Below are positions 1 through 4,692 of a DNA stretch of 4,692 nucleotides, piece by piece. The notes under the pieces were generated by a model that saw only the letters and a program-made list of their open reading frames with translations, was not told the origin of the DNA and ran no database searches. This DNA is from a virus (lineage: Duplodnaviria; Heunggongvirae; Uroviricota; Caudoviricetes): positions 1 to 4,692 of the IMG/VR virus record IMGVR_UViG_2563366929_000001; one strand, written 5' to 3'. The position numbers and the translations under genes are program-made. How positions within the stretch are numbered: position 1 is the stretch's first letter; each line of letters begins with the position of its first letter.

Positions 1-41
1 CGTTGACGGACTTCGGGGGAAAAACGAGTATTTTTAGTCAT
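1..41 (-). CDS. IS3-family transposase OrfA, 5' partial (first 13 codons; remainder lies outside the window)
   Basis: ATG at 41..39 on the minus strand preceded by AGAGG; translation MTKNTRFSPEVRQ matches the IS629-type OrfA N-terminus as I recall it. Mirror image of 4652-4692. Confidence 0.7.
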   Translation of the reverse strand, partial: MTKNTRFSPEVRQ

Positions 42-95
42 CCTGTTTACCTCTTTCTCAGGAAGTTTAGTCTCCAGGATTCCCGGGGCGGTTCA
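1..95 (-). mobile_element. IS3-family insertion sequence (IS629-like), inward-facing orfA-proximal end; element continues beyond the window start
   Basis: Positions 1-95 are the exact reverse complement of 4598-4692 (checked base by base). Read on the minus strand the terminus starts TGAACCGCCCCGGG at position 95, followed by a Shine-Dalgarno and ATG at 41..39. I recognise the terminus and the MTKNTRFSPEVRQ N-terminus as IS629/IS1203-type from memory; no database search was run. Confidence 0.85.
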
Positions 96-134
96 GAGGG
101 TCATTATGGTGAATATGCTGGCTTGCTGGTGGGC

Positions 135-149
135 TATTCCTGCTCTTTA
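135..149. repeat. Direct repeat copy A: TATTCCTGCTCTTTA
   Basis: 15/15 identical to 393-407 on the same strand. Flanks add similarity (GG before, C-TTGC after), giving roughly 27 bp with a few mismatches. On the minus strand it reads KEQE plus a stop codon (TAG). Confidence 0.8.
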
Positions 150-391
150 ACATTGCCATGCCGCGATGTTTTCCAGGTATGCGACCCCATTTTTGTGTGC
201 CTGTACTCTTTAAGGAATTTCTCAAGGACAAACGCACAGGGCGCGAATCTGTCTGACTCATGCTCGTACGCTATCTTTCTGCGCTGTCTTTTCCGTGCCG
301 GTGATGGTGTATTGGTTGATTCTTTGTTGGTCATGGCGCTGCCCTGTAAAATAATGCACCGTAGTTCCTCACACCACGGCACCTATAGTGG

Positions 392-697
392 TTATTCCTG
401 CTCTTTAGCTTTGCGCCGCTGGAGTTCTTCACGCGCGACGGTGACGAGTTGCCCGATTTCCTCGGCAGCTTTGACTCCGATTTTTTCCACCTGCGCTAGG
501 GCATCGAGCGAAGAAACCAGGGGATTTTCTCCGCTTCCTTCTGCCTGGCGGCGGGCGATTTCACCGCGAACGGCTGTAATCACGAAAGCGGCTATTGTTT
601 CCCCTTCCGTTTTCGAATTTTCCATTTCCTCGATTACATCATGGGGGAAGCGGATATTTTTCATTTGCGATCTGCTGTTGATGTTTCCTGTTGCCAT
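392..697 (-). CDS. Small putative DNA-binding regulator, possibly ribbon-helix-helix (Arc/CopG-like); 101 aa, or 90 aa if translation starts at the ATG at 664
   Basis: Intact ORF divergent from the rightward operon. The segment NIRFPHDVIEEMEN followed by GETIAAFVITAVRGEIARR has the strand-then-helix pattern of Arc/Mnt-type proteins (compared from memory). Neither candidate start has a strong Shine-Dalgarno, so the start is uncertain. Fold assignment is inference. Confidence 0.5.
   Translation of the reverse strand: MATGNINSRSQMKNIRFPHDVIEEMENSKTEGETIAAFVITAVRGEIARRQAEGSGENPLVSSLDALAQVEKIGVKAAEEIGQLVTVAREELQRRKAKEQE
393..407. repeat. Direct repeat copy B: TATTCCTGCTCTTTA, overlapping the last codons of the 392-697 minus-strand gene
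   Basis: 15/15 identical to 135-149. On the minus strand it encodes the C-terminal KEQE of the regulator gene; the TAA stop is at 394..392. Confidence 0.8.
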
Positions 698-718
698 CAG
701 AATGTCCGGTTATTTTGA

Positions 719-737
719 GGTGTGTACACATTACACC
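719..737. repeat. Operator-like palindrome 1 (GGTGTGTACACATTACACC), core TGTGTACACA perfectly palindromic
   Basis: Seen directly; GGTGT at 719-723 and ACACC at 733-737 flank the 10-bp palindrome. Overlaps a candidate leftward extended -10 (minus strand TGgTGTAAT, plus coordinates 730-738). Confidence 0.5.
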
Positions 738-759
738 AAAAGGTGTGTTGATAAAACAC

Positions 760-789
760 TTGACACTGTAGCACACTTAAATTTAATTT
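760..789 (+). promoter_or_regulatory. Candidate sigma70 promoter for the rightward operon: -35 TTGACA (760-765), 18-bp spacer, -10 TAATTT (784-789)
   Basis: Perfect -35 consensus. The -10 matches the consensus T, A and final T positions only. Prediction by eye, not experimentally supported. Confidence 0.35.
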
Positions 790-821
790 GTATATACACC
801 AATTGTTGTGGTGTATATACA
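789..821. repeat. Operator-like palindrome 2: 12-bp perfect inverted repeat TGTATATACACC (789-800) / GGTGTATATACA (810-821), 9-bp spacer
   Basis: Exact reverse-complement arms; sits over the predicted -10 and start region of the rightward promoter. Confidence 0.55.
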
Positions 822-887
822 GCAACGCCCCGCAGTGGTGGCACACATGCAGGGCGTCTAACCAAACCGTTAAACGAGGTAACGATT

Positions 888-1253
888 ATGGCTGGAACAC
901 AGCATACCCAAACTCACCCTAAATTTATATACACCTTCCTGGCGGTGCACCGTGATTGCATTGCTGACGGTAAAAACACTGTACACGTAGCCGCCGATAC
1001 GCTGGTTGATGCCTGCGAGATGCTCAATGACATGGGCTATATCTCGGCAACATGGAAAGGGCGCGAAGAAAACACGCTGTTTATTCAGAAATGCGAAAAC
1101 AATTTTATCTGGCGTTTTATCGCCCTGAGTACGGCACAACCGCGCGTGATTCACATCGAGGCCACCAGCGAACAGGAAGCACGCCAGCAATCTCCTGATG
1201 GCTGCGTGATGGTATTCGCTGCCCGTATTCGCCAGGAGGTGGAGCATGTGTAA
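888..1253 (+). CDS. Hypothetical protein (121 aa), first gene of the rightward operon
   Basis: ATG at 888 with GAGG 8 nt upstream (876-879). The stop TAA (1251-1253) overlaps the next gene's ATG (1246) in the 8-nt pattern ATGTGTAA. The 3..1253 ORF in the track is the same frame, but only the part from 888 is credible. No family recognised. Confidence 0.65.
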   Translation: MAGTQHTQTHPKFIYTFLAVHRDCIADGKNTVHVAADTLVDACEMLNDMGYISATWKGREENTLFIQKCENNFIWRFIALSTAQPRVIHIEATSEQEARQQSPDGCVMVFAARIRQEVEHV

Positions 1254-1470
1254 TGCAACATGGCCTGATGCAGCGGTAGACGCTATCAAAACGCTGATGG
1301 ATTCACTTATTGAGATTTCTGCTATCGCTGGTGTGGCGCATAAACACGCAGCCAGAGAATCAGAATGCATCTCCCATTATTTAGCATTTGTGCAGCTAAA
1401 AGCCGATCAGGCACTGGATAAGGCCGGAAAAATTATCATGGCTGATGTGCAGGAGGTGCACCATGCATAA
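1246..1470 (+). CDS. Hypothetical small protein (74 aa); C-terminus (DVQEVHHA) resembles that of gene 4
   Basis: ATG at 1246 with AGGAGG (1234-1239) 6 nt upstream; 8-nt overlaps with both neighbours. Confidence 0.65.
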   Translation: MCNATWPDAAVDAIKTLMDSLIEISAIAGVAHKHAARESECISHYLAFVQLKADQALDKAGKIIMADVQEVHHA

Positions 1471-1828
1471 CCTGTCAATTTCTGACCTTAACAGCATTCA
1501 GTTTGACGAGAAATTTACCGGGCAGTTGCTGGTCAATGTGGAGAACGGGCGCATAGTGCGTAATTACCACCTGCCGGATGGTGCAATTGCCGGAAGCGTT
1601 GAAGCATTGCTGGAGCTGGCGGAACGTGCGCGACTGATTAAGCCGTCAACGTGCCATCACGATGATGATCTGCATTTTACCGGGTGTATGGTGAGTCACT
1701 ACGAAAACGGCGTTGAAGTATCCTGCGAACGTCTGCGTGATGATTGCTGTTTCGGCACACTGCCGGAATTTATCGAATTGCTGACCAGTTGCGGTTATCA
1801 GGTCATTCAGGGGGGTAAACATGCGTGA
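1463..1828 (+). CDS. Hypothetical protein (121 aa) made of two tandem copies of an FTG-motif domain; the C-terminal copy is Cys/His-rich
   Basis: ATG at 1463 with AGGAGG (1451-1456) 6 nt upstream, preferred over the track's ATG at 1445, which has no Shine-Dalgarno. Internal repeat FTGQLLVNVENGRIV / FTGCMVSHYENGVEV. Stop TGA at 1826-1828 overlaps the next ATG at 1821. Confidence 0.65.
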   Translation: MHNLSISDLNSIQFDEKFTGQLLVNVENGRIVRNYHLPDGAIAGSVEALLELAERARLIKPSTCHHDDDLHFTGCMVSHYENGVEVSCERLRDDCCFGTLPEFIELLTSCGYQVIQGGKHA

Positions 1829-2054
1829 TGATCGTTTTAATTCCCTGAAACAGGAGTTTGATGGCGCACCGGAAGATACATCGGGCGCATTGTTGAGCAT
1901 TGCTGACATGATGAAAGCTGCATATTTTCTTATCAATACCAGTGGCTACAAGTCAGAGGGTGAAATGATTCTTAGTATTGCGTCGGACTATGCTGAATAT
2001 GTGGCAGAGACGCGTTACAGAAGAAAATCTCTGGAGGATGTAAGCCATGCATAA
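1821..2054 (+). CDS. Hypothetical small protein (77 aa); C-terminus (LEDVSHA) resembles that of gene 2
   Basis: ATG at 1821 preceded by GGGGGT (1811-1816); 8-nt overlap ATGCATAA with the next gene. Confidence 0.6.
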   Translation: MRDDRFNSLKQEFDGAPEDTSGALLSIADMMKAAYFLINTSGYKSEGEMILSIASDYAEYVAETRYRRKSLEDVSHA

Positions 2055-2247
2055 TCATGAAGCGCATGTACCCGTAGTGCTTAATGTGCCAGATGATTTC
2101 ACCGGACGCGTGCTGGTTTACCTGGATAAAGGGAAAGTGAAATCACAATGCCGACTGAAAAGTAATGAGATTGTTGGTTCTCCTGAATTTTTTTCTGAAC
2201 TTTGTATTCGTGCGGAAATAAAACCGGAACTGCTGACAGGAAAATAA
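2047..2247 (+). CDS. Hypothetical small protein (66 aa), single-copy FTG-motif domain paralogous to both halves of gene 3
   Basis: ATG at 2047 with GGAGGA (2033-2038) 8 nt upstream. By-eye alignment to the gene 3 N-terminal domain gives about 40% identity over ~44 residues (FTGRVLVYLDKGKV..., ...ELCIRAEIKP versus ...ELAERARLIKP). Confidence 0.65.
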   Translation: MHNHEAHVPVVLNVPDDFTGRVLVYLDKGKVKSQCRLKSNEIVGSPEFFSELCIRAEIKPELLTGK

Positions 2248-2251
2248 AACC

Positions 2252-2542
2252 ATGAAAAAGAAATATTCTGGCTTTACTGCCAGCGGCCTCTCTCGGCCTG
2301 AAATCCGCCCCGGTGATATTTTCCGGGACACCAGACGCGGGGGACGGGTGGTTATTCGTCACGTTACGCCAGGCAATATCACCTACCGCCGTGAGGCTTA
2401 CGAATATGACTGCGTAATGCCGCGCCGTCAGTTTGAGCGTGATTTTATTCTGGTGGAAAACAAACAACAGGCAGTGGCGAGACGTGCAGCCACGAATATT
2501 AAAAAAATCCGGGCAATGTTGGTTGCGGGAGGTAAGAAGTGA
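2252..2542 (+). CDS. Hypothetical basic small protein (96 aa); loosely reminiscent of DUF4222-type prophage proteins (low confidence)
   Basis: ATG at 2252, 4 nt after the previous stop, with only a weak Shine-Dalgarno (AGGA about 11 nt upstream). Stop TGA (2540-2542) overlaps the GTG start of the replication gene. The family hint comes from a remembered RPGD...RRG...V pattern, not a search. Confidence 0.55.
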   Translation: MKKKYSGFTASGLSRPEIRPGDIFRDTRRGGRVVIRHVTPGNITYRREAYEYDCVMPRRQFERDFILVENKQQAVARRAATNIKKIRAMLVAGGKK

Positions 2543-4344
2543 AAAACGCACCGAATTTAAAATATCAGCCGAAGGATAAATTCACCGAGGTAATCATTTT
2601 TGCCGGGACGGATGCTTACGCCCATGCTCAACACTGGATTGAAAGCGAAGGACGAAAACACGGCGATAACGTGCCTCCTGTTTACCTGGGGCCAAAGCAA
2701 CTGGCAGACCTGGCGAATATCCGCATTGTCGACGATGAACGCCGCTTTGCGCGTGTCTATCTCGCGGGGGAGATAGAGCCAATCCAGATCAATGCTATTG
2801 CTGAAAAGCTGGCGCTGGCTGGTGTACAGGACGCGAAATTATACAAAGGTATCACCGACCGGGAGCCGGAAAACTGGCGCGACTACCTGCAACGGATCCG
2901 CGAACAGGCAGAGAGTGGGGAAGTTTCAGCGATGAAATTAGCCACAAAAAATATTGACCTATCCAGGCCAGCACTAAATCAGATGGGAGCCAGCCAGAGA
3001 GGGGAAGTGTTACTTGAATATTATGGAAGAGCACTGGCTATAAATGATGATTCTGATGTAGTTCACCATTACAACGGAATTGTCTGGGTGCCTGTATCTG
3101 ATAAGGAACTCCAGCGGTCTATGGCGAAGATTTTTATTGATGCTGGAATCAGTTATTCGCAAAACGCCATTAAATTTGCCGTAGACACAATGAAATTGAG
3201 CCTGCCTGTTATGGGCGGGGCAGACAGGAATCTTATTGGATTCAGTAACGGGGTATTTGATACCCGGACGGGAAATTTTCGGGAGCATAACAAAAATGAC
3301 TGGTTGTTAAATGCCAGTGAATTACCGTTCAGCCCACCAGCAGAGGGGGAAACGCTGGCAACACATGCGCCGAATTTCTGGAAGTGGCTGCGTCGTTCGG
3401 TGGCAGATAATGATCGTAAAGCTGATCGCGTACTGGCGGCATTATTCATGGTACTGGCGAACCGGTACGACTGGCAGTTATTCCTTGAGGTAACAGGCCC
3501 AGGCGGAAGCGGTAAAAGTGTGATGGCTGAGATTTGTACCATGCTGGCGGGTAAGGCCAACACAGTATCGGCAAGCATGAAGGCTCTGGAAGACGCAAGG
3601 GAACGCGCGTTAGTAGTTGGCTTTTCGCTGATTATCATGCCGGATATGACTCGCTACGCTGGCGATGGTGCAGGAATTAAGGCAATTACTGGCGGCGACA
3701 AGGTGGCAATTGATCCGAAACATAAAGCCCCCTACTCCACACGTATTCCGGCAGTAGTGCTTGCGGTAAACAATAACGCCATGTCATTCAGTGACCGAAG
3801 CGGGGGGATCTCGCGTCGTAGGGTGATATTTAATTTCTCTGAGGTCGTACCGGAGAACGAACGCGATCCCATGCTGGCGGAAAAGATAGAAGGCGAACTG
3901 GCGGTAGTGATTCGCCATTTGCTAACACGATTTACCGACCAGGACGAAGCTAAAAGACTACTTTATGAGCAGCAAAAATCAGAAGAAGCGCTGTTGATAA
4001 AGCGCGAAGGTGATTCACTGGTGGACTTTTGCGGCTATCTGATGTCGTTGGTTAAATGTGAAGGAATGATGGTGGGCAATGCGGAAATAGTGCCATTTAG
4101 CCCGAGGCGATACCTGTATCATGCTTATTTAGCCTATATGTCAGCGCATGGCCTGGGAAAACCAGTATCACTGACACGCTTTGGTACTGATATGCCAGGA
4201 GCTATGGCGGAATACGGAAAGGAGTATAAGCGGGCTAAATGCACTAAAGGCCCGGATAAAGGGCGAGTGATAACAAATGTTCTGTTAGATGATGATGCTG
4301 ATGGCTGGTTGCCAGCAGCTACAGGGATTAACGACAGAACATAA
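2539..4344 (+). CDS. Replication protein with P4 alpha / D5-type SF3 helicase (NTPase) C-terminal domain; putative primase-helicase/replication initiator of the element (601 aa, GTG start)
   Basis: Walker A motif GPGGSGKS (nt 3496-3519). Downstream ITGGDKVAIDPKHK (from nt 3685) followed by VVLAVNNN resembles the conserved motifs of the phage/plasmid primase P4-family C-terminal domain as I recall them. GTG at 2539 with GGAGG (2528-2532) 6 nt upstream; the first in-frame ATG is ~130 codons downstream, so GTG is the likely start. I did not recognise a canonical Toprim EGxxD motif in the N-terminal ~320 aa. Confidence 0.85.
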   Translation: MKNAPNLKYQPKDKFTEVIIFAGTDAYAHAQHWIESEGRKHGDNVPPVYLGPKQLADLANIRIVDDERRFARVYLAGEIEPIQINAIAEKLALAGVQDAKLYKGITDREPENWRDYLQRIREQAESGEVSAMKLATKNIDLSRPALNQMGASQRGEVLLEYYGRALAINDDSDVVHHYNGIVWVPVSDKELQRSMAKIFIDAGISYSQNAIKFAVDTMKLSLPVMGGADRNLIGFSNGVFDTRTGNFREHNKNDWLLNASELPFSPPAEGETLATHAPNFWKWLRRSVADNDRKADRVLAALFMVLANRYDWQLFLEVTGPGGSGKSVMAEICTMLAGKANTVSASMKALEDARERALVVGFSLIIMPDMTRYAGDGAGIKAITGGDKVAIDPKHKAPYSTRIPAVVLAVNNNAMSFSDRSGGISRRRVIFNFSEVVPENERDPMLAEKIEGELAVVIRHLLTRFTDQDEAKRLLYEQQKSEEALLIKREGDSLVDFCGYLMSLVKCEGMMVGNAEIVPFSPRRYLYHAYLAYMSAHGLGKPVSLTRFGTDMPGAMAEYGKEYKRAKCTKGPDKGRVITNVLLDDDADGWLPAATGINDRT

Positions 4345-4371
4345 TACGAAATTTATAAGCTGAAACGTAAA

Positions 4372-4572
4372 GGTAGACGGTTGGTAGACAGATTCACTTA
4401 ACCCTCTACCAACCATCTACCAATTAATATTTTGAATTATAAAGATATTTTCAATGTGGTAGAGAGGTAGACAGTTATTTCTATATTCCTAAACCACGGG
4501 GGGTATATAAAAAACAGATAGTTAAGGGGGCATTTTTTAAATTTCTCTTTTAACTGTCTACACTGTCTACCA
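4372..4572. repeat. Iteron array and AT-rich tracts directly downstream of the replication gene; candidate origin of replication (P4 crr/ori analogue)
   Basis: GGTAGA(C/G) in forward orientation at 4372, 4383, 4458 and 4466 (two as GGTAGACAG). Reverse-complement copies at 4405-4410, 4416-4421 and a tandem 9-mer pair ACTGTCTAC at 4553-4561 and 4562-4570. Several pairs are spaced 11 bp apart, about one helical turn. AT-rich stretches at 4421-4457 and 4476-4553. Confidence 0.6.
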
Positions 4573-4597
4573 TTTAGTAAAAATCATTAATTATCAA

Positions 4598-4692
4598 TGA
4601 ACCGCCCCGGGAATCCTGGAGACTAAACTTCCTGAGAAAGAGGTAAACAGGATGACTAAAAATACTCGTTTTTCCCCCGAAGTCCGTCAACG
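4598..4692 (+). mobile_element. IS3-family insertion sequence (IS629-like), inward-facing orfA-proximal end; element continues beyond the window end
   Basis: TGAACCGCCCCGGGAATCCTGGAGACTAAACTTCC... begins at 4598, with Shine-Dalgarno AGAGG and ATG at 4652. Exact reverse complement of 1-95. Confidence 0.85.
4652..4692 (+). CDS. IS3-family transposase OrfA, 5' partial (first 13 codons)
   Basis: ATG at 4652; translation MTKNTRFSPEVRQ, then the window ends. Confidence 0.7.
   Translation, partial: MTKNTRFSPEVRQ

Follow-up and report, generated by a model that had tools for sequence, protein, structure and literature searches.

The window analyzed here is the whole 4,692-nucleotide stretch at positions 1 to 4,692 of IMG/VR virus record IMGVR_UViG_2563366929_000001, and it contains a run of small genes each of which ends inside the next in an identical way. 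The question raised by this locus is what such uniform junctions stand for. The first-pass annotation had taken them as the trace of a two-gene module duplicated in tandem. Our comparison with related loci points instead to the junctions themselves: a portable overlap connector of ∼20 to 30 nt probably joins swappable small genes in the early operon of a phage-inducible chromosomal island (PICI). From its site and gene content, the window appears to be the early/replication operon of an EcCIMP1-like PICI at thrW in Escherichia coli. The genes of the operon are as follows:

g1, 888..1253, plus strand: Icd-like gene, 121 aa, first of the operon (NCBIfam NF033153, E=6e-23; NCBI Prokaryotic Genome Annotation Pipeline [PGAP])
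g2, 1246..1470, plus strand: separable cassette, 74 aa (phrog_5146)
g3, 1463..1828, plus strand: 121 aa, two tandem FTG domains (approximately residues 1-62 and 63-121; phrog_340)
g4, 1821..2054, plus strand: predicted three-helix protein, 77 aa (phrog_24341)
g5, 2047..2247, plus strand: 66 aa, one FTG domain, paralogue of g3 (phrog_340)
g6, 2252..2542, plus strand: DUF4222 protein, 96 aa (Pfam PF13973, E=1e-19)
g7, 2539..4344, plus strand: P4-alpha-type primase/helicase, 601 aa (D5_N, DUF5906, Pox_D5)

Junction geometry and the shared connector

Both the coordinates and the PGAP annotation bore out the geometry described by the first-pass annotation, with each downstream ATG placed 5 nt before the upstream stop. 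The g1/g2, g2/g3, g3/g4, and g4/g5 pairs overlap by exactly 8 nt (ATGTGTAA, ATGCATAA, ATGCGTGA, and ATGCATAA, respectively; pattern ATGNNTRA), and the products of g1 to g4 all end in His-(Val/Ala) before the stop (...EHV, ...HHA, ...KHA, and ...SHA), again as had been noted. The 10-mer reported at two of the junctions was also recovered: CCATGCATAA occurs at 1461-1470 (junction 2/3) and 2045-2054 (junction 4/5), preceded in both cases by GGAGG (at 1452-1456, spacer of 6 nt, and at 2033-2037, spacer of 9 nt). A Shine-Dalgarno (SD) sequence, either GGAGG or a G6 tract, lies 5 to 9 nt before each downstream ATG, inside the upstream open reading frame (ORF). Junctions beyond g5 differ, g5/g6 being a 4-nt gap and g6/g7 a 4-nt GTGA overlap.

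To place these junctions in context, IMG/VR and RefSeq were probed with g3 and g6; the 147 loci collected contain 86 distinct Icd-to-DUF4222 regions with 260 small-gene junctions. These comprised 195 overlaps of 8 nt, 38 of 11 nt, and 5 of 4 nt; thus, ∼90% were 8- or 11-nt overlaps, irrespective of the neighbors and in 24 of 26 family-pair types. Entry to g6 was always through a gap of 4 to 6 nt, never an overlap, and g6/g7 always overlapped by 4 nt in the relatives. The motif ATGNNTRA by itself shows no enrichment in the window (9 copies versus 6.7 expected). What chance does not explain is its position at four gene boundaries in a row, since 8- and 11-nt overlaps dominate the small-gene junctions of the relatives to the extent just given. 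If unconstrained, a stop at that exact alternative-frame codon would be expected in ∼5% of cases by a simple codon-probability estimate; the baseline for the frequency of 8-nt overlaps consists of this estimate and a review statement, not of an empirical E. coli count.

The uniformity can be traced to a few sequence rules. Downstream genes start with M-x-N or M-x-D, and their second codon ends in T (CAT, ATT, TGT, CGT, AAT, GGT, GAT, or CCT), so that the upstream TAA or TGA falls in codons 2 and 3 of the next gene. With TGC or CAC as the second codon, the upstream frame is closed one codon later by a back-up TAA, which gives the 11-nt overlap. A cytosine immediately precedes the ATG in 65 of the 73 distinct junction sequences, which accounts for the penultimate His of the upstream protein.

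Beyond these rules, the last residues of the upstream protein travel with the downstream cassette. Thus, g3 ends in GGKHA when followed by g4, in GVNHG or GVHHG before the g5' allele, in GVRHVQ before g2' (the distant form of g2), and in SKTQE before g6. Similarly, QGVRHVQ is the terminal sequence before the g2'/X2 cassette whether g1, g3, or g5 lies upstream, and EVHHA is that found before g3 with g1, g2, or X5 upstream. A connector with the consensus ATTC(NNN)CAGGRGGTG-NNNC-ATG terminates members of five unrelated families, while the g4 family uses a second connector type, GGAGGATGTAAGCC-ATG. According to the model that we favor, the connector would be read twice: in the upstream frame it would encode the last 4 to 7 residues plus the stop, the latter inside codons 2 and 3 of the next gene, and as mRNA it would provide a strong SD and the start of that gene. 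The ORF upstream would then be terminated by whichever cassette comes next, 5 nt past the ATG of that cassette.

All of this presupposes that the genes are real. An annotation artefact, in which small ORFs or wrong starts would give overlaps that are not true gene boundaries, could be suspected because the proteins are small and have no Pfam family or known function, and because another ATG, at 1445, could serve as an upstream start for g3. Nevertheless, the g2 to g5 ORFs are conserved at the protein level down to ∼50% identity in many contigs, and each belongs to a PHROG family; the N termini MCN, MHN, and MRD are conserved and have an SD 6 to 9 nt upstream; the ATG at 1445 disappears where g1 directly precedes g3; and RefSeq/PGAP gives the same starts and stops for g1 to g5 in an identical copy. 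We therefore regard an artefact as scarcely credible.

Homology and assortment of the small genes

The proposed duplication of g2 plus g3 to give g4 plus g5 survived in only one of its halves. The FTG-domain relationship between g3 and g5 was upheld by BLASTP (E=2e-7 with the N-terminal domain of g3 and 0.005 with its C-terminal domain) and by hhalign with family alignments (probabilities of 99.6% for g3N-g5, 96% for g3C-g5, and 60.5% for g3N-g3C); g3 and g5 are thus true FTG paralogues. The alignment of g2 with g4, proposed as a check on the duplication, gave no similarity: BLASTP yielded no alignment at E≤100, and the hhalign probability was 0.1%, or 0.2% with enlarged alignments (40 and 74 sequences) run alongside the FTG positive controls, which scored 96 to 99.6%.

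A tandemly duplicated module composed of a helical gene and an FTG gene, with the identical junctions as its boundary, would account for the paralogy of g3 and g5, for the similar sizes of g2 and g4 (g4 being modeled as helical), for the presence of CCATGCATAA at both junctions 2/3 and 4/5, and for relatives in which g2 is followed by a single-domain FTG gene (g1-g2-g5-X1-g6). Several of these points have another origin. The shared 10-mer results from both FTG paralogues starting with Met-His-Asn. The resemblance between the C termini of g2 (QEVHHA) and g4 (EDVSHA), which had been offered as a sign of kinship, does exist, but it extends to the unrelated g1 (QEVEHV) and likewise to g3, g5, and X5, because the SD, spacer, and ATG of the next gene are read in the upstream frame; being the junction motif, such tails constitute no evidence for paralogy of g2 and g4. 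In agreement with this, a DNA repeat search linked the junctions only through a 23-nt SD-to-stop block, which junction 1/2 also has. The dissimilarity of g2 and g4, together with the occurrence of g1-g3-g5, g2-g4-g5, and g3-g4-g5 orders and of g2'-g4' fusions, which indicate independent assortment, makes the duplication model very improbable. As a warning for annotation, like C-terminal tails in adjacent small genes can be imposed by the junction and need not reflect homology.

The relatives did not reveal a single-copy version of the two-gene module, which the first-pass annotation had suggested looking for; every cassette assorts freely instead. At least 30 different orders of the small genes exist among the 86 distinct regions, including the window type (g1-g2-g3-g4-g5-g6), g1-g3-g5-g6, g1-g2-g3-g5-g6, g1-g3-g4-g5-g6, g1-g3-g6, g1-g2-g4-g5-g6, the already mentioned g1-g2-g5-X1-g6, g1-X1-g6, and g1-g5-g5-X1-g6, plus others with X1, X3, and X5. 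Judged from these gene orders, the small genes that separate the Icd-like gene from the DUF4222-primase pair appear to be independently assorting cassettes. The fixed stoichiometry that had been deduced from the overlaps is an over-reading of the evidence, and it sits poorly with cassettes that are freely present or absent.

The only genes for which joint action has separate support are g2 and g4. In islands lacking g3, the g2-like and g4-like genes adjoin, and at least six distinct sequences carry them as an in-frame fusion (...ADCENGGV-MRDDRFN...); these natural fusions measure 150 to 155 aa. This adjacency and fusion mark them as probable partners rather than paralogues, and their products probably form a two-subunit, sometimes fused, protein. 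The occurrence of such fusions also explains the layout of phrog_2512, a 154-aa profile whose N-terminal half covers g2 and part of g3 and whose C-terminal half covers g4. This profile was considered as evidence of g2/g4 homology and rejected; we read it as a family assembled from fusion proteins of the g2'-g4' and g3-g4 kinds.

The FTG family seems to be narrow in distribution, with 16 representatives among 1.8 billion proteins, mostly from Escherichia and some from Salmonella; a scan of genome contigs with the FTG alignment found one locus only, in E. ruysiae. For two g3 homologues from Salmonella/metagenome sources (P0104 and P0105), precomputed annotation gives PF27490; the Pfam copy searched returned nothing for these two proteins, and the FTG domain family may already be defined in a newer Pfam release. 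PHROG placed g2 to g5 only in families of unknown function. An AlphaFold2 model of g3 showed a hairpin-plus-helix unit twice, at low confidence (pLDDT, the predicted local distance difference test score, of 59, too weak for a fold search), while that of g4 showed three helices (pLDDT 81). As a narrowly distributed and fast-rearranging satellite family, the FTG domain deserves functional tests.

Recombination, tract length, and predicted coupling at the junctions

The sequence elements that bear on exchange at the junctions are the following:

Junction linker 1/2, 1226..1253, plus strand: ATTCGCCAGGAGGTGGAGC + ATGTGTAA, comprising the SD, spacer, g2 start, and g1 stop
Left copy of the 9-bp direct repeat flanking g2, 1233..1241, plus strand: CAGGAGGTG (repeat family D1, spacing 217)
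Right copy of the 9-bp direct repeat, 1450..1458, plus strand: CAGGAGGTG, SD for g3
G6 tract, 1810..1815, plus strand: SD of g4 (length G6 to G10 among relatives)

Two relatives, L049 and L065, correspond to the window minus exactly 217 bp, that is, minus g2. They keep one copy of CAGGAGGTG, while the window has two. Thus, g2 is a clean 217-bp insertion/deletion bounded by these repeats, and we infer that the connector itself is a preferred recombination site. An exchange within the connector would restore both reading frames and the predicted coupling, given that the tail and stop of the upstream gene and the SD and start of the downstream gene all lie in it. A broader proposal, to which we give tentative credence only, is that the connector constitutes a plug-and-play interface, a preferred crossover site for the exchange of small accessory genes between PICIs, to which the poly-G version adds strain-variable switching.

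The same junctions could also have arisen by convergence alone: the needs of coupling (strong SD, optimal spacer, ATG, and early stop) would make them alike, illegitimate or intragenic recombination would shuffle cassettes at any position, and selection would keep those that restore the geometry, the connector having no role in recombination. The core of the similarity is indeed the anti-SD complement AGGAGGT, some breakpoints are intragenic, recombinants occur within FTG domains, and −8 spacing is generally enriched in prokaryotes. This reading, however, does not account well for a similarity that exceeds the SD (ATTC upstream and GTG..CC downstream), for identical 7-residue tails on three different upstream genes, or for a g2 insertion/deletion that ends exactly in a 9-bp repeat, and we consider it unlikely, although less so than the duplication model.

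The FTG recombinants are of two kinds. Many variants have lost sequence in frame between the FTG repeats of g3, among them P0117, P0120, P0123, P0124, P0127, and P0128, and P0150 is a g3::g5 hybrid joined at the FTG motif in which everything between both genes is gone. These are signs of frequent recombination between paralogous FTG domains.

The tract preceding g4 varies among relatives from G6 through G7, G8, and G9 to G10, and tract-length polymorphism altering the reading frame was found among close relatives. With G6 or G9 the overlap is 8 nt, with G7 or G10 the genes are separated by 2 nt, and with G8 g3 and g4 are fused in frame; tract variants were found in L040, L047, L050, L068, L111, L123, and L148, and their outcomes also include a 28-nt overlap and a g2'-g4' fusion. 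Some individual contigs may carry homopolymer sequencing errors. The 196-aa fusion proteins form large clusters (P0089 and P0091).

Termination-reinitiation coupling, which had been proposed from the overlaps, is plausible at these junctions: a terminating ribosome would most likely reinitiate at the overlapping ATG of the next gene. The genes overlap on the same strand, four times by 8 nt, and their SDs lie inside the upstream ORFs. An intragenic SD with an overlapping stop is an architecture that supports such coupling (PMC12548453, PMC6728339), and −8 spacing is an enriched coupling class (PMC12548453); for E. coli, experiments have shown such coupling at gene pairs that overlap by 4 nt (PMC6728339). 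Consensus scans found no plus-strand terminator-like site within 888-4344 and no internal plus-strand promoter-like site within the operon.

A number of observations weigh against the connector and against coupling through it. The 86 regions are related by kinship, so the junction counts are not independent events. Comparison of the window with L003 placed the right breakpoint at the g3/g4 junction and the left one inside g2, near 1360, and the idea that mosaic breakpoints always lie at junctions was rejected on account of this intragenic breakpoint; moreover, selection acting on random recombinants would be expected to leave cassette boundaries at gene ends as well. Coupling is predicted here from geometry alone. 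The RNA folds at six junctions were no more stable than those of shuffled sequences (z scores from −0.65 to +0.75) and thus give no support for occlusion of the start or SD when the upstream gene is not translated, and the strong SDs could permit independent initiation. As to the products, Pfam, NCBIfam, and PADLOC searches gave no family for g2 to g5, defense-system models gave no match for them, Foldseek with the g4 model against PDB and BFVD gave nothing at E≤0.001, and a PDB sequence search with the FTG profile gave no match.

If the portable connector is nonetheless correct, a reusable interface would explain how tiny accessory genes, probably helper-phage or host-interaction factors, are frequently shuffled without breaking operon expression. 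It would also represent a natural design rule for translationally coupled synthetic operons.

The island and its place among known systems

The PICI criterion applied was an integrase beside a tRNA or attachment site, regulatory and primase/replication modules, no structural or lysis genes, and a size of ∼10 to 15 kb. A 100% match to the window operon was found in E. coli FDAARGOS_1301 (locus L001), between proA-thrW and MarR-vat. In that copy, the upstream order is proA, tRNA-Thr, integrase, helix-turn-helix (HTH) regulator, and AntA/AntB antirepressor; downstream of the primase, an IS3-family insertion sequence (IS) interrupts the island directly, followed by defense genes and then MarR and vat. 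In L147, a relative without the IS interruption, the primase is followed by ProQ, PerC, and an AAA-ATPase/DUF4435 pair, and structural genes are absent. Both L001 and L147 contain thrW, integrase, HTH, AntA/B, YlcI, Icd-like, and primase genes, and their context also holds ProQ, PerC, and defense cargo, with zero structural genes. No DNA-level match to the operon was found among deposited phage genomes.

Upstream of the operon lies one divergent gene:

g0, 392..697, minus strand: YlcI/YnfO-family gene, 101 aa (NCBIfam NF041551, E=8e-18; RefSeq annotation of the identical copy)

The operon's first gene, g1, matched NF033153 over residues 73-116 with 80.6 bits (curated cut-off, 25) as well as phrog_6196 and phrog_1743, and its tail is ...RQEVEHV; these matches suggest that it belongs to the Icd-like cell-division inhibitor family. 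Between g0 and g1 (718-857), a 13-bp perfect inverted repeat (789-801/809-821) and ACACC/GGTGT repeats are operator candidates for the island regulator; a consensus scan picked up no sigma-70-like promoter in this intergenic region. Directly 3' of the primase gene, an AT-rich stretch (4372-4571) contains six copies of GGTAGAS in both orientations (expected count in the whole window, 0.46), a cluster suggestive of an iteron-type origin of replication for the island.

A perfect 95-nt inverted repeat occupies both ends of the window (1-95/4598-4692) and corresponds to an IS3-family terminus including the start of orfA (MTKNTRFSPEVRQ). Complete E. coli genomes match contiguously only 96-4692, with a single IS on the right, so the left copy would be a second insertion or an assembly-graph edge. 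The position downstream of the primase is a defense-gene hotspot, with different cargo in each copy: L147 carries at 19186-21142 the AAA ATPase and DUF4435 pair, PARIS-like and itself with an 8-nt overlap, while the window-identical copy L001 carries at 20625-23723 a DNA methyltransferase, a DUF262 protein, and a HEPN-like nuclease. A further satellite, L002 (2697-14616), comprises integrase, AlpA, YlcI, Icd-like, one small gene, DUF4222, primase, and single-stranded DNA-binding protein genes and encodes its own major capsid and decoration proteins; it sits inside the major capsid gene of a lambdoid prophage, annotated as two flanking partial halves.

Among described elements, the closest in site and gene content is EcCIMP1, whose excision, replication, and packaging were shown experimentally to depend on the helper phage Kapi1 (PMC11773190). 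Both use the proA-thrW site beside the MarR-vat island, and both have integrase, antirepressor, primase, and PerC genes while lacking structural genes; this likeness is one of site and gene content. In the published description of EcCIMP1, no analysis is given of the small ORFs separating the regulatory region from the primase. The more distant, capsid-forming PICI (cfPICI)-like relative L002 differs in having its own capsid genes and has the Icd-DUF4222-primase backbone in common with the window.

The poly-G tract at the g3/g4 or g2'/g4' boundary, of strain-variable length and frame changing, resembles the homopolymeric contingency loci of phase variation. It differs from them in that the window tract is only G6 and in that all three frames are usable (overlap, small gap, or fusion), which is not an ON/OFF arrangement; the length differs here between strains, and slipped-strand switching within a clone is a candidate mechanism only.

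Overall, the operon is best described as a modest variant of two known themes, overlap-mediated coupling and phage/satellite mosaicism. The known coupling classes are −4 (ATGA), −1 (TAATG), and a minor −8 (NTGNNTGA), and the junctions studied here share with coupled pairs the same strand, a start 5 nt before the preceding stop, and an SD in the upstream ORF. They differ in that the rarer −8 (or −11) class is near-exclusive across a series of nonhomologous small genes, in that this geometry is kept whatever the neighbors, −4 occurring in this operon only at DUF4222/primase, and in that coupling is here a prediction. As in lambdoid phages and satellites, cassettes the size of a gene come and go between conserved flanks and share short sequences at their boundaries, and phage recombinases promote recombination between diverged repeats (PMC2327257, PMC3945230). 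The difference lies in the nature of the boundary, which here is a coding connector made of the upstream tail and stop and the downstream SD and start, so that an exchange preserves both reading frames and the overlap geometry.

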